Below, one piece after another: positions 3,836 through 24,608 of a DNA stretch of 26,300 nt. Position 1 is the stretch's first letter; every line of letters starts with the position of its first letter. The notes beneath the pieces are model-generated. The model was not told the DNA's origin. It was given only the letters and a program-made list of their open reading frames with translations, and ran no database searches. Both the position numbers and the translations under genes were made by a program. Source of the DNA: a virus (taxonomy: Duplodnaviria > Heunggongvirae > Uroviricota > Caudoviricetes); the IMG/VR virus record IMGVR_UViG_3300005253_000530, one strand, 5' to 3'.

Positions 3836-3889
3836 AAATAGAGTGCCGGTTCATAGGGAGAATTTCGCAGATGATAAATTTTTTTAAAA
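3836..3889. repeat. 54-bp direct repeat, copy 1
   Basis: 48/54 identical to 4390-4443. Confidence 0.9.
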
Positions 3890-3921
3890 AGAAAATAAAA
3901 AGAAAATAAAAGGAGTAAGGT

Positions 3922-4389: not shown

Positions 4390-4463
4390 AAATAGAGGTC
4401 CGGTTCATTGGCAAATTTTCGCAGATGATAAATTTTTTTAAAAGATGATAAATTTTTTTAAAA
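4390..4463. repeat. 54-bp direct repeat, copy 2, plus tandem partial third copy
   Basis: AGATGATAAATTTTTTTAAAA repeated again at 4443-4463. Confidence 0.9.
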
Positions 4464-4502
4464 ACAAAATCAAAATCAAATAAAGAATAGTAATAAGTAA
4501 AC

Positions 4503-4549: not shown

Positions 4550-4766
4550 CATACCAATTTCTAGTAGTTTTAGTGAAATGAACTGACATAGAAGTTTAAC
4601 CCCTACAAATAAACCAATACTGTGAGGTATGAGATAAGCCATTAGGGGATTTAGTTCAAGTAGTAGTTCTAAATTTGTTCCCCCCCACAGTTATGGCTGT
4701 ATCTAGTAGTATAACCAGTAGTAGTATTTTTGTATATTTGTTCATATATGTTACCAGTTTGGAAGG

Positions 4767-4807
4767 GTATAAAGGAGCTAACCACCCCATAGTCTGCTCC
4801 TTTATAC
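4767..4807. repeat. Perfect 12-bp inverted repeat
   Basis: GTATAAAGGAGC-N17-GCTCCTTTATAC. Confidence 0.85.
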
Positions 4808-4875
4808 GGTGAAATGAAAAGTTGGTAGGTACTATTATGAATAGTATAGAGTAGGCTTATTATTATTATTTTTAT

Positions 4876-5058
4876 TTATATTCCCCAGTATAGTTTTACT
4901 GACAGCCGGGCAATCCATATAGGAGGCCCGCAAGCTAAGATAATCCATCTGCTGTCATATAGTAGCCTTGCATTACCAAACCATAGTTTATAGGTATATA
5001 TTAACCCACCTATTATAGTCCATAATCCAATGATTGATAATATTGTTAAGGCTGTCAT
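4876..5058 (-). CDS. Small membrane protein
   Basis: AGGAG RBS; two hydrophobic segments. Confidence 0.65.
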   Translation of the reverse strand: MTALTILSIIGLWTIIGGLIYTYKLWFGNARLLYDSRWIILACGPPIWIARLSVKLYWGI

Positions 5059-5144
5059 GTTAATACTCCTTTATGAGGTCTTGATGGTCCTATTGGTATA
5101 GGTTTTTTGTCATAATCTGATGGCCCTGATCCCTCTAGTTTCAT
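5055..5144 (-). CDS. 29-aa micro-ORF MKLEGSGPSDYDKKPIPIGPSRPHKGVLT
   Basis: AAGGAGGT RBS; TGA overlaps the next ATG; shares GPSDYD with 5330-5383. Confidence 0.65.
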   Translation of the reverse strand: MKLEGSGPSDYDKKPIPIGPSRPHKGVLT

Positions 5145-10186: not shown

Positions 10187-10199
10187 GATGCTCTTCCTT

Positions 10200-10271
10200 T
10201 GGAGGGGATGGAGGGAATTAAACCCTCATCCAGTGGGTTGCAATCACTGTACCGGATCACCGAACACCCCC
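10200..10271 (-). tRNA. Compact tRNA-Cys(GCA)-like gene with tRNA-Pyl-type architecture
   Basis: GGGGGTG-T-TCGG TGAT CCGG-TA-CAGTGA TT GCA AC CCACTG-GAT-GAGGG TTTAATT CCCTC-CATCCCC-T-CCA. Confidence 0.7.
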
Positions 10272-10275
10272 TTTT

Positions 10276-10461
10276 TTAATTATACCAATGGTCTATGCTG
10301 CCAAAATATTCACAGCACAAACAATATAGTGCTCGATATTTTCCTCCATCATTTAACAAATTTCCTACTGAATCATAAACGCGATAGAACTTTCCTTTCC
10401 TTCCTTTGTCCATGTCTCCTTCTTCAGCTAAAGACTCTTTACAAAAAGGACATTGCATCAT
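10276..10461 (-). CDS. Zn-ribbon protein
   Basis: CPFC...CLCC; ATGA overlap with the upstream gene. Confidence 0.6.
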   Translation of the reverse strand: MMQCPFCKESLAEEGDMDKGRKGKFYRVYDSVGNLLNDGGKYRALYCLCCEYFGSIDHWYN

Positions 10462-11339
10462 CGCTGCCATAATTTTTTCCAATATCTCTTTGCTCTATAT
10501 TTTATAGTCCACTTTAGTTCTTTTGGTTTTAACCAATCGTACTTTCGGTGTAGTATATCTTTTATTATTATTTTAAGCGACTCCCAGTATAAAATTTTAC
10601 TTGCATATAAATTTCCACATTGATATCCATTCATGGCTGGAAAATAGAAGTTATTGGTCGCTCCCATACCACATTCAAATAATACGAACTCTATGATCTC
10701 GTCCTTTAGTTCGCCTTGTCGCATTTTTGGCTGATATATATCATTGAATACCTCATAATCTCTGAATACAAATATACTAGAGATAGATGAAAGGAAGTGA
10801 TTACCTCTATCATGTTCTTTATCCCTGCCTAGAATTCTATAACAGTCATCAAACATTTTGATGTTTTTTTCTACTTCCTTTAGATATCTTTCAAGCTCAT
10901 TAGTAAGTGCCAGCATTGGATTATCTCTAGGCTCGGCAAATATTGGGCAACTAATCCCGCCCCATTCATTTGCTATTGAGCATTTCTTTACCATAATATC
11001 ATAAATTTTTCGGTGGACAAACATACCAGACGAAATAGTTCCCACTGCAGGACCCTTTTCTTTAATAGATATCACTTTATCGATAGGGATGCCAAAGAAC
11101 TCCTCTATGATCTCTGTATTTCTATTCTTTTCGATATTTTCTACCCTACCATAATCATCATACTCACCAAAAATAGGTAGAGTAACTGGAGCATAAAAGC
11201 AGTGAGTATATATTAGCATATCATTGCCATCACCTATATGATAACGATACCTAGCCTTCTCCAGTGGTATGTATGCTACTGGATCACCAGCGCCTATACT
11301 TACATTTGATATTGAACATGCTACATTAAAACTTCCCAC
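10458..11339 (-). CDS. Hypothetical protein, 293 aa
   Basis: Long ORF; MGSFNVACSIS...PIFGEYDDYG; no function recognised. Confidence 0.8.
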   Translation of the reverse strand: MGSFNVACSISNVSIGAGDPVAYIPLEKARYRYHIGDGNDMLIYTHCFYAPVTLPIFGEYDDYGRVENIEKNRNTEIIEEFFGIPIDKVISIKEKGPAVGTISSGMFVHRKIYDIMVKKCSIANEWGGISCPIFAEPRDNPMLALTNELERYLKEVEKNIKMFDDCYRILGRDKEHDRGNHFLSSISSIFVFRDYEVFNDIYQPKMRQGELKDEIIEFVLFECGMGATNNFYFPAMNGYQCGNLYASKILYWESLKIIIKDILHRKYDWLKPKELKWTIKYRAKRYWKKLWQR

Positions 11340-11514
11340 GATTCGGTTTCTCCCTTGATCTTATTTCCTCTGGGTATAATTCTATTTCTCTACGACTGTT
11401 GTCTGGCCTAACTATTATATAATATCCTCTTGTGCCAGTGATTGTCGCAAGAGTAGTTGGTAGATCTTTTATGTCTTTCCTTAGGATCACGACTTTATCT
11501 CCTATTTTATACAT
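11326..11514 (-). CDS. SH3/KOW-like small protein
   Basis: AAGGA RBS; YKIGDKVV; start reassigned out of the tRNA. Confidence 0.6.
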   Translation of the reverse strand: MYKIGDKVVILRKDIKDLPTTLATITGTRGYYIIVRPDNSRREIELYPEEIRSREKPNRGKF

Positions 11515-11528
11515 TTTAATTTTCCTTT

Positions 11529-11602
11529 TAGGGCGGGAAGGTCTCGAACCCATCACTCTCCCGGTTAAAAGCCGGGTGCTTGCCCTGCTAAGCTGCCGCC
11601 CC
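11529..11602 (-). tRNA. tRNA-Lys(TTT) with C8 and bulged T-stem
   Basis: GGGGCGG CA GCTT...AAGC A CCCGG CT TTT AA CCGGG AGAGT GA[T]GGG TTCGAGA CCTTC CCGCCCT A. Confidence 0.9.
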
Positions 11603-11605
11603 TCA

Positions 11606-11803
11606 TTAAGTTATCATTCTTTGTAGGAATCTTCTAGCTTCCTCGTCAGTTATGCGTGTCTTTGATATTGCTGGGTTGTATGATATAAAATATTTTTTAT
11701 CTTTTGCATACAGCCCATCTACATACATATCTAATTTTAATAGTATTTCATTGTATGGTTTACCGGGAGATACATCTACAATTACTGTAGCTATTCGTTC
11801 CAT
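11606..11803 (-). CDS. Hypothetical protein
   Basis: AAGGAG RBS; 65 aa. Confidence 0.7.
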   Translation of the reverse strand: MERIATVIVDVSPGKPYNEILLKLDMYVDGLYAKDKKYFISYNPAISKTRITDEEARRFLQRMIT

Positions 11804-11819
11804 ATTGTAATTCTCCTTT

Positions 11820-11893
11820 TGGGGCAGGAAGGATTCGAACCTATCGTTCTTCCGATTAAGAGTCGGATGCTTGACCTGCTAAGCTGCTACCCC
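11820..11893 (-). tRNA. tRNA-Lys(CTT) with C8 and bulged T-stem
   Basis: GGGGTAG CA GCTT...AAGC A TCCGA CT CTT AA TCGGA AGAAC GA[T]AGG TTCGAAT CCTTC CTGCCCC A. Confidence 0.9.
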
Positions 11894-11900
11894 TTAAAGT

Positions 11901-12083
11901 TTAGATACATATTGAAGGGTGCTGGATTACCCGCTCTATTTTTGAAGGTCATATTGGTTGCGAACCTAACTTTCTTCAAGTTCAATTGGACAGCATCCTC
12001 TTAAACGTGCTCCGTTCAAGCGCTCTATGAAATATCGCAGCGCTACAAATATTTCTTGAGCTAACCCTTCGATATATATCTAA
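11901..12083 (-). ncRNA. Candidate structured tRNA-like ncRNA (~183 nt)
   Basis: 20-bp terminal inverted repeat (18/20) enclosing a cloverleaf skeleton with expanded D and T arms; promoter directly upstream. Confidence 0.55.
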
Positions 12084-12086
12084 TGA

Positions 12087-12115
12087 ATTATACCCCCTTT
12101 AATATCTCATGTATA
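12087..12115 (-). promoter_or_regulatory. Sigma70-like promoter for the candidate ncRNA
   Basis: TATACA-N17-TATAAT ending 3 nt before 12083. Confidence 0.55.
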
Positions 12116-12263
12116 TACATGTTTTACAACTTAGTTTGTCATCGGTTTCTACATAATTTTCTACTTCTCTAAATGTTGTAAGACATCTGCATATTGGTCC
12201 GTACATTTTCCATACGCTGCCACTGGCATGCACTGTACTGCTTTCTCACTAAGCTATACCCCT

Positions 12264-12407
12264 TTAGTTATGTACTCCAGTTGAAAATTGATGACCACAA
12301 GTTTTACATTGTTTTACATAATCAAATACACAAACAAAGGTCTGAGCTGGTGTTATATCACTGCTGTTACACTTAGGACATTTAACTATTTTACCGTTTT
12401 CTTTCAT
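12264..12407 (-). CDS. 47-aa Zn-ribbon protein (not in ORF track)
   Basis: CPKC...CKTC; ATGA overlap with the upstream gene. Confidence 0.65.
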   Translation of the reverse strand: MKENGKIVKCPKCNSSDITPAQTFVCVFDYVKQCKTCGHQFSTGVHN

Positions 12408-12715
12408 GCATTTTTTTCCCCATATATTAATGAAGTGTAAAACTCATCCCTTTCCCACTGTTTGAACTCTTCCTGCTGTATCTTAAGACTTTCAGCTGAT
12501 AGTTTTTTAGTCTGTTCCCAGATTCTTTTCTGCTTTTGTTCTGACTCTTCTCTACCTGTCTTCATAAATTTTGCTACGTCATCCCATACCTTTTCTGTTG
12601 AGATTGTTTCTCTGTTATCATAGTCCATGAACTTTCTTCTGTAAACAGTATCGCCGTCTCTTTCATAGATGTATGTGTCATCTGCCTTTATAAATACTTT
12701 TTCTTCTAAGTCCAT
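12404..12715 (-). CDS. Hypothetical protein
   Basis: AGGAGG RBS; 103 aa. Confidence 0.75.
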   Translation of the reverse strand: MDLEEKVFIKADDTYIYERDGDTVYRRKFMDYDNRETISTEKVWDDVAKFMKTGREESEQKQKRIWEQTKKLSAESLKIQQEEFKQWERDEFYTSLIYGEKNA

Positions 12716-12739
12716 AATTAATTCCTCCTAATTCTTGTG

Positions 12740-12814
12740 CGGAGCTAGTGGGACTTGAACCCACGATCTCTACCGTGACAGGGTAGCGAGCACTCCAGAC
12801 TGCTCCGTAGCTCC
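12740..12814 (-). tRNA. tRNA-Asp(GTC) with C8
   Basis: GGAGCTA CG GAGC...GCTC G CTACC CT GTC AC GGTAG AGATC GTGGG TTCAAGT CCCAC TAGCTCC G. Confidence 0.93.
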
Positions 12815-13144
12815 TTATCTGTCTTCAAATTTGTTTAGATATTCTAATAGATCTTCTTCGTTTTTATATCCGAAGTATTTATCAGTATAAATTATATTTA
12901 TATCTCCGCTATAAAATGGAGATTTTTCTATCTCTTCAAGCGGCTTTACTGTAGCAAACGATTCACAATCCCAGTGGTGCTCTTCAAAAATAAAATTATC
13001 TCCAAATTTTATTCGGGAAATAGCAAATGATTTCCTTGGAGGTATTCATATACCATAGTTAGCATTACGTGCTGCTATTCTATAGAGGTATCCACCTTTG
13101 AGGTCTTTTATTTTTAGGTATTCTTTGATTCCTTTTGTAGCCAT
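12815..13144 (-). CDS. 109-codon gene with one in-frame TGA (readthrough gene or pseudogene)
   Basis: AGGAGAG RBS; MATKGIKEYL...NYGI*IPPRKSF...LNKFEDR then TAA; TGA at 13046-13048. Confidence 0.65.
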
Positions 13145-21861: not shown

Positions 21862-21876
21862 AATAATTTTCCTGTG

Positions 21877-21960
21877 TGGGGGAGACTGGAATCGAACCAA
21901 CAAGGTCACAATGACGGTCGGGTTACAGCCGACAGAGCCCACCACCTGCTCAACTCCCCC
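21877..21960 (-). tRNA. tRNA-Tyr(GTA)
   Basis: GTCGG CT GTA AC CCGAC; variable arm GTCA/TGAC; A73. Confidence 0.93.
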
Positions 21961-22561: not shown

Positions 22562-22651
22562 TGGGGTAACCGACGAGCCTCGAACTCGCACATTCTTCAC
22601 AGAATACAGGGGCCACATCCCTGCGCGTCTACCATTTCCGCCACGGCTACC
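22562..22651 (-). tRNA. tRNA-His(GTG) with long variable arm, G-1:C73, CCA encoded
   Basis: G-GTAGCCG TG GCG GAAATGGTAGA CGC G CAGGG AT GTG GC CCCTG TATTCT GTGA AGAATG T GCGAG TTCGAGG CTCGT CGGTTAC C CCA. Confidence 0.85.
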
Positions 22652-24522: not shown

Positions 24523-24608
24523 TGGAGGAGAACAGAGGAATCGAACCCCCATGTTTTACCACGCCCCTGGGTTCAAACCAGGTTGCCGACCATTCGGTAG
24601 TGCTCTCC
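24523..24608 (-). tRNA. tRNA-Ser(TGA), folds as an 8/4 allo-tRNA type
   Basis: GGAGAGCA/TGTTCTCC 8-bp acceptor, 6-bp D-stem with 4-nt loop, long V-arm, 4-bp T-stem, T73 CCA. Confidence 0.75.

Follow-up and report, generated by a model that had tools for sequence, protein, structure and literature searches.

A predicted tRNA-like RNA element closed by a long helix in the tRNA gene array of an uncultured marine-sediment phage

Phage tRNA clusters are already known to carry stable RNAs that are not tRNAs. In T4, these are the species 1 and species 2 RNAs encoded by rnaC and rnaD, which are non-decoding, lie within the tRNA cluster on the same strand and adjoin a tRNA, and whose function is, to our knowledge, still unexplained. 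The first of them, rnaC, is itself tRNA-like, with paired ends and a large structured interior. RNase III leader–trailer helices, as around rRNAs and in T7 early RNA, are flanking helices of about two turns that normally enclose a functional RNA within a polycistronic transcript. In YrlA-type Y RNAs, which occur in phages (Chen et al. 2014, PMC4201824), the two ends of the molecule likewise pair in a long helix that closes a tRNA-like module. At the DNA level, miniature inverted-repeat elements (MITEs) combine terminal inverted repeats with a length below 200 bp, are stable when folded as RNA, and are present in some relatives and absent from others. Here, we describe a phage element that shares features with each of these systems.

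The element lies in a 26.3-kb stretch of phage DNA (hereafter the window, meaning the whole stretch that was analysed). The phage is uncultured, the contigs that bear the element come from marine-sediment metagenomes, and the genes present, among them those for an HNH endonuclease, a uracil-DNA glycosylase, a radical SAM protein and NAD salvage, are those of a large phage. An earlier note on this DNA had given the element a span of 11901–12115; this divides into an RNA body (11901–12083) and a pair of promoter-like hexamers (12087–12115). The features are as follows:

11901–12083, minus strand: whole stem-closed element, 183 nt; a unique inverted repeat with the lowest GC-corrected minimum free energy (MFE), folding with z −5.54
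12072–12083, minus strand: 5′ arm of the closing helix, outer 12 nt (element positions 1–12), pairing with 11901–11912; pair probability 0.94
12064–12070, minus strand: acceptor-like 5′ strand GAAGGGU (positions 14–20), pairing with 11914–11920; probability 0.98
12022–12061, minus strand: D-arm-like unit with a GCUC/GAGC stem; probabilities 1.00 (stem) and 0.87 (hairpin)
12000–12020, minus strand: anticodon-arm-like hairpin with an 8-bp stem (one G·U pair) and a 5-nt loop, GAGCA; probability 0.78
11921–11999, minus strand: 3′ domain (positions 85–163) with competing folds; suboptimal folds differ by at most 0.1 kcal/mol
11961–11977, minus strand: 17-nt stretch resembling tRNA-Lys(CUU), with 15/17 identity and a T-loop-like GG-UUCGCAA-CC motif
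12087–12115, minus strand: promoter-like TATACA-N17-TATAAT, not distinguishable from chance
11820–11893, minus strand: tRNA-Lys(CUU), 74 nt, 55.3 bits (Rfam), starting 7 nt after the closing helix
12099–12262, minus strand: upstream tRNA-Lys(CUU) stub and truncated small zinc-ribbon ORF, by comparison with the intact sequence at L012:4433–4713

The element sits on the minus strand between the small truncated ORF and tRNA-Lys(CUU), in a region where 16 tRNA genes and small ORFs are closely packed in one orientation. It contains no credible ORF, with stops in all six frames, as had been noted earlier. We found no terminator after the element, where the next tRNA follows 7 nt on. The claim that the element has a promoter of its own did not hold up. 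The hexamers TATACA and TATAAT are present with their 17-nt spacing, but such sites occur at chance level, with 43 found compared with 38.2 ± 5.8 expected from shuffles (10 kb). The −35 hexamer falls within the conserved coding sequence of the upstream ORF, where one relative (L016) reads TATACT, and the −10 hexamer falls in a spacer resembling a tRNA-Lys 5′ end (AAAGGGGGTATAAT here and AAAGGGGTATAGC in L012, a relative from another study). We did not count the promoter-like site as evidence.

We then considered the fold and its statistics. All of the helices listed in the earlier note are present in the minus-strand sequence. The 20-bp closing helix is likewise present and unique, although its actual make-up is 12 bp, a C·A mismatch and a further 7 bp, with pair probabilities of 0.94–0.98. 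Its arms are complementary at 18 of 20 DNA positions, while one more pair, a U·G in the outer part (12076/11908), forms on the minus strand only. No other inverted repeat in the window reaches 18/20 within 300 nt, and 10 shuffles yielded none. RNAfold gave −57.8 kcal/mol for the 183-nt minus strand (z −5.54 against 200 dinucleotide shuffles, none of which was as stable). We also ranked 183-nt windows by a GC regression of MFE, and the element had the lowest GC-corrected value among 429 minus-strand windows, including those bearing tRNAs. A scan for long helices allowing G·U pairs returned only noise. The structure is real and unusual. After GC correction, the second and third stablest 183-nt folds are those at 4764–5068 and at 10193–10375, both on the minus strand, with residual z of −2.9 and −2.5; the fold at 4764–5068 sits where the gene direction switches.

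Both strands of the element fold well, with the plus strand reaching −52.5 kcal/mol (z −4.56). On the minus strand, the robust helices comprise 36 Watson–Crick and three G·U pairs with no mismatches, whereas the same three G·U pairs become A·C mismatches when read on the plus strand. These three pairs, together with the 5.3 kcal/mol greater stability of the minus strand, favour the gene strand as the one that folds.

The two halves of the element differ in how well their folds are determined. In the 5′ half, pair probabilities run from 0.78 to 1.00, being highest for the GCUC/GAGC stem (1.00), followed by the GAAAUAUU/GAUAUUUC hairpin (0.87) and the 8-bp CUUGAACG/CGUUUAAG hairpin (0.78). The 3′ domain has competing folds. 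The UGCUG/CAGCA stem described in the earlier note is present, but it uses A164, which is also needed by the closing helix, and the alternatives, the version in the earlier note among them, lie within 0.1 kcal/mol of one another. Similarly, the nested hairpin that had been placed at the T-loop position (TTGAAG/CTTCAA with GGTT/AACC) can pair, but at a probability of ∼0.37 it competes with a GAACUU/AGGUUC pairing at 0.57.

A closer examination of the junction bears out the tRNA skeleton recognised earlier, with a four-way junction, tRNA linker lengths and conserved nucleotides that can be read directly from the sequence. The core has the lengths of a tRNA core: the acceptor-like helix measures 7 bp and is joined by 2 nt to a D stem of 4 bp, after which comes a single nucleotide at position 26. 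Its sequence is GAAGGGU-UA-GCUC-A...A-GAGC-G, with ACCCUUC-A on the 3′ side. At the outer end of the acceptor-like helix, C at 12071 lies opposite A at 11913 with both unpaired, which is the geometry of tRNA positions −1 and 73. The nucleotides typical of tRNA are G1–C72, A73 (opposite the unpaired C at −1), U8, A14, A21, G26 and G53–C61. The equivalents of U8–A9, A14, A21 and G26 flank the stem of the D-arm-like unit, and a 27-nt hairpin stands at the place of G18–G19. After the third arm, a 4-nt linker leads to a GCUG/CAGC stem that contains the G53–C61 equivalent and has UCCAAUU after its 5′ strand; this may be a T stem of 4 bp that stacks on the acceptor helix.

In other respects, the element departs from a tRNA. 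The anticodon-like arm has neither U33 nor a 5-bp stem with a 7-nt loop, and instead can be drawn with an 8-bp stem and the 5-nt loop GAGCA, or with a 7-bp stem and the loop GGAGCAC, which has G at position 33. The elbow is also interrupted on both sides, by the 27-nt hairpin in the middle of the D loop and by ∼59 nt between UCCAAUU and the 3′ strand of the T stem. The acceptor-like helix continues for 12 bp past the unpaired −1/73 position, and no CCA is encoded.

Searches with tRNA models gave the same picture. Using cmscan with Rfam 15 at E ≤ 10, on 701 nt and on 196 nt, we obtained nothing relevant, the tRNA family (RF00005) included, so that the suggestion of an undescribed RNA stands in so far as no family matched. 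A search of the whole window at the Rfam gathering thresholds returned 13 tRNAs only. ARAGORN reported nothing on the element in its default, intron, low-threshold, tmRNA and mitochondrial modes. When both inserts were removed in silico, a tRNA whose ends agreed exactly with the prediction was called by ARAGORN, but only at 70% of its threshold, a setting that also gives obviously false calls. We rejected the element as a tRNA on the basis of its interrupted D and T loops, non-decoding arm, missing CCA, and lack of recognition by Rfam and ARAGORN. It has a skeleton that is plausibly derived from a tRNA, but it is not itself one.

The sequence similarity of the 3′ domain to tRNA is to the adjacent gene. 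Positions 11961–11977 match the variable region and T arm of tRNA-Lys(CUU) at 15 of 17 nucleotides. A local alignment of the element to this tRNA scored 24, compared with 14.2 ± 2.2 for shuffles, of which 11 in 5000 reached 24; after correction for the 17 tRNAs tried, this corresponds to ∼0.04. The alignment gives modest support for an origin of the interior from tRNA-Lys sequence, and tRNA ancestry of the element is plausible. Duplex energies between the element and each of the 16 tRNAs were not unusual, with all z above −2.

With these features defined, the comparison with known systems can be made more closely. T4 rnaC has a comparable fold score (z −4.57), although it shares no sequence or model similarity with the element, and a covariance model of the element (R1) scored only 4.4 bits on rnaC. 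Furthermore, the T arm of rnaC is canonical and directly adjoins the 3′ strand, whereas the T arm of the element is interrupted and its terminal helix extends to 20 bp. The arms of YrlA are arranged in permuted order. Those of the element follow tRNA order, the Rfam models for Y RNA and YrlA gave no match on the element at E ≤ 10, and no Ro60 (TROVE) protein was found among 10 window ORFs scanned, both of those of at least 400 aa included. These two large ORFs are a peptidase M29 and a GHKL ATPase, and no others in the window reach that size. We rejected a Ro60-linked Y RNA on these grounds, namely the lack of an Rfam match, the lack of a Ro60-sized ORF in the window, and the tRNA order of the arms. 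For RNase III stems, a near-continuous helix of ∼20 bp or more is expected, and the closing helix is of this kind (12 bp, a 1×1 mismatch and 7 bp). Unlike the RNAs normally enclosed by leader–trailer helices, the interior of the element is not recognisable as a functional RNA.

The element has a very narrow distribution. It is identical in contigs from three samples of one study, and in L012 it is 99.5% identical, with one substitution (11953, predicted to be unpaired, in the 3′ domain); one further substitution in L012 lies just outside the closing helix. The block that contains it (∼12374 to 11603) is 99–100% identical to L012 irrespective of content, which makes conservation in L012 uninformative. 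For this reason, we rejected the argument that conservation of the element reflects selection, as the element lies inside one such block of a mosaic alignment. Over 10872–12906, blocks of 99–100% identity to L012 alternate with patches of 40–87% identity within 2 kb, an arrangement that would be expected if small cassettes were often exchanged within the tRNA cluster.

Among the contigs of six flanking-protein homologues that we examined, that of L012 alone carries the element. Six relatives that are more distant cover the syntenic place and lack it there. Protein genes occupy this place in L013/L014, and again in L018, L019 and L020. In L015, a small zinc-finger gene (the homologue of the 47-aa ORF at 12264–12407 of the window) runs directly into tRNA-Lys, and in L016 the next gene comes directly after the zinc-ribbon ORF. 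The gene maps of further contigs leave no room for the element. As most relatives do not have it, any role would be dispensable within the phage group.

Wider searches returned no further copies. The covariance model R1 was run on 27 loci, on four complete IMG/VR records and on the tRNA region of T4, and it matched the window and L012 only. Using blastn against 50,697 phage records, only tRNA-Lys matches were found; an exact 23-mer had no match in IMG/VR, and a pattern for the D arm with its insert gave three chance matches, all in coding sequence. IMG/VR relatives of the 293-aa neighbour have no tRNA cluster nearby, while relatives of the 103-aa neighbour numbered none in IMG/VR, seven JGI loci and 12 protein clusters. 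A search of sequencing runs for the element listed no RNA run that contains it, and contigs from four DNA runs yielded only the two L012-type substitutions and other gene orders, with no diverged copy. On these searches, the element is an orphan whose occurrence is limited to two phages that are nearly identical. An undescribed tRNA-derived RNA was proposed in the earlier note, and although the similarity to tRNA-Lys fits a tRNA origin, the standing of the element as an RNA family is not supported. The homologue search that had been suggested produced the L012 copy, and no copy diverged enough for covariation; given this orphan status, covariation gives no handle on function.

We tentatively favour, at somewhat less than even confidence, the reading that the element is a tRNA-derived, non-decoding structured RNA module that is co-transcribed with tRNA-Lys. 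This is favoured by the fold statistics, the strand-specific G·U pairs, the tRNA details and the T4 precedent. The position of the element in a co-directional tRNA array, 7 nt upstream of a tRNA, adds support, as do the unique inverted repeat, the similarity to tRNA-Lys(CUU) and the ARAGORN call on the trimmed core. Set against it, the element gives no sign of being under selection and is dispensable, its D/T elbow is lost, and tRNA models fail on it. In addition, the plus strand folds well too, and the adjoining tRNA stub and truncated ORF show that non-functional sequence persists here.

Under the module reading, the element would be transcribed with its neighbours as part of a minus-strand polycistronic RNA, and cleavage by RNase P at the 5′ end of tRNA-Lys(CUU), 7 nt downstream, would set its 3′ end. 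The 20-bp leader–trailer helix would hold the ends paired, preventing CCA addition, aminoacylation and ribosome entry, and the same helix may be cut by an RNase III-type enzyme or may stop exonucleases. What results would be a stable RNA, shaped like a tRNA and able to occupy tRNA-binding proteins. However, with both the D-loop and T-loop equivalents interrupted, the elbow recognised by most tRNA-binding proteins would not form. Alternatively, the module may simply protect the end of the upstream message. The earlier note had proposed a decoy for nucleases, synthetases or RNase P; our results do not support this function, and there is no partner gene. tRNA-Lys is a target of the anticodon nuclease PrrC and of PARIS defence. 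A more specific version, in which the element belongs to a class of phage 'pseudo-tRNAs' that derive from the phage's own tRNAs (here tRNA-Lys), are barred from translation by a helix and act as decoys or sponges for host factors, strikes us as quite improbable.

If expressed and processed, the element would offer a tractable case for non-decoding, tRNA-shaped phage RNAs, whether these serve as decoys, processing signals or message protection. It would be a clear case, in which two turns of helix seal a tRNA-derived RNA and the cluster around it has several genes for lysine tRNAs. As a single-lineage orphan with no selection signal, it is of value as a lead and does not amount to a result.

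Comparison with L012 shows that the neighbourhood has been remodelled, which bears on the alternatives. Of a second tRNA-Lys(CUU) gene, 71 nt long, only a 5′ stub of 27 nt is left, at positions 12236–12262. Its 3′ two thirds, together with the start of the zinc-ribbon ORF, were lost in a deletion of 116 nt whose endpoints lie at two AGTA tetranucleotides, and the stub is now fused to the middle of the 65-aa ORF, which runs to 12099. The deletion is present in all three samples of the phage. More broadly, the gene order in the lysine-tRNA part of the cluster differs in nearly every relative. In a region that has been exchanged, duplicated and broken in this way, explanations of the element as a relic or as a mobile cassette keep some weight.

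The first of these holds that the element is a functionless relic, a former tRNA gene of a recombination-prone cluster that took up palindromic insertions, had its ends duplicated in inverted orientation and is now passively transcribed. We consider this unlikely, while giving it more serious attention than any other alternative. The lineage-specific and dispensable nature of the element suits a relic, as does the failure of tRNA detectors on it, and its 5′ flank (AAAGGGGGTATA) resembles a tRNA-Lys 5′ end. Fresh decay is found nearby, both in the 116-nt deletion with its tRNA-Lys stub and truncated ORF, and downstream in L012, where a 2-nt insertion (L012:5009–5164 compared with window 11606–11803) cuts the 65-aa ORF that follows tRNA-Lys(CUU) to 51 aa. 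Decay does not build structure, yet the element is the stablest fold in the window. Its robust helices contain 39 pairs in consecutive helices with no mismatch, and include three independent perfect helices of at least 8 bp. The arms of the closing helix differ at only two of 20 positions, and one of these changes still pairs as G·U on the gene strand.

The second alternative, which we judge to be improbable, is that of a MITE-like, hairpin-ended mobile or exchangeable DNA cassette with 20-bp terminal inverted repeats, inserted at the 5′ end of tRNA-Lys. The dimensions are suitable (repeats of 18/20 and a length of 183 bp), and the element is present in some relatives and absent from others. 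The repeats end in TTA...TAA, which is compatible with a TA target, although these bases are also part of the palindrome. Imperfect direct repeats of 11–12 nt (TTAAAGGGGGTA and TTTAAGGGGTA) lie near both ends; they are offset by 7 and 3 nt from the ends of the inverted repeats, so that they do not form a textbook duplication, and they are equally well explained as tRNA-Lys 5′ ends. Target-site duplications had been named in advance as the sign of a MITE, and we found neither a clean one nor a second copy, the latter having been sought in the window, 27 related loci and four whole viral records. The repeat-arm pattern was absent from 185,579 species genomes, and in IMG/VR it gave only two chance matches, each to a single arm. 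Neither a transposase nor an integrase lies nearby, and the relatives yielded no empty site that has both of the flanks seen here. Moreover, the tRNA-like interior sets the element apart from MITEs.

Finally, a DNA-level site for binding or cleavage by a phage protein (homing endonuclease or recombinase), or a replication or packaging signal, with an incidental RNA fold, is very unlikely. In its favour, the two strands are nearly equal in how well they fold, the opposite strand carries an HNH endonuclease gene at a distance of 1.1 kb, and the region is a mosaic of exchanged blocks. Against it, L012 carries the element without an HNH gene at that place, interior helices with gene-strand-specific G·U pairs are unnecessary in a protein-binding inverted repeat, and the tRNA-like details go unexplained.

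Several minor observations were made on other parts of the array and window. Compared with L012:5212–5285, the tRNA-Lys(UUU) at 11529–11602 differs at 11574, 11572, 11564 and 11562, and by their spacing, these four differences look like two compensatory pairs in one stem. Three tRNAs fell below the Rfam tRNA threshold, namely tRNA-His (22562–22650), tRNA-Tyr (21876–21960) and tRNA-Ser (24523–24608). ARAGORN predicts the first of these, on the minus strand, as an 89-nt tRNA-His(GUG) whose variable arm is long and whose CCA is encoded, and it draws the tRNA-Ser with 8 bp in the acceptor stem and 4 bp in the T stem. Near the end of the plus-strand gene block, the window contains a direct repeat of ∼54–75 nt (3836–3910 and 4390–4484), whose copies are 89–90% identical, lie 554 nt apart and both end in an A/T-rich run.
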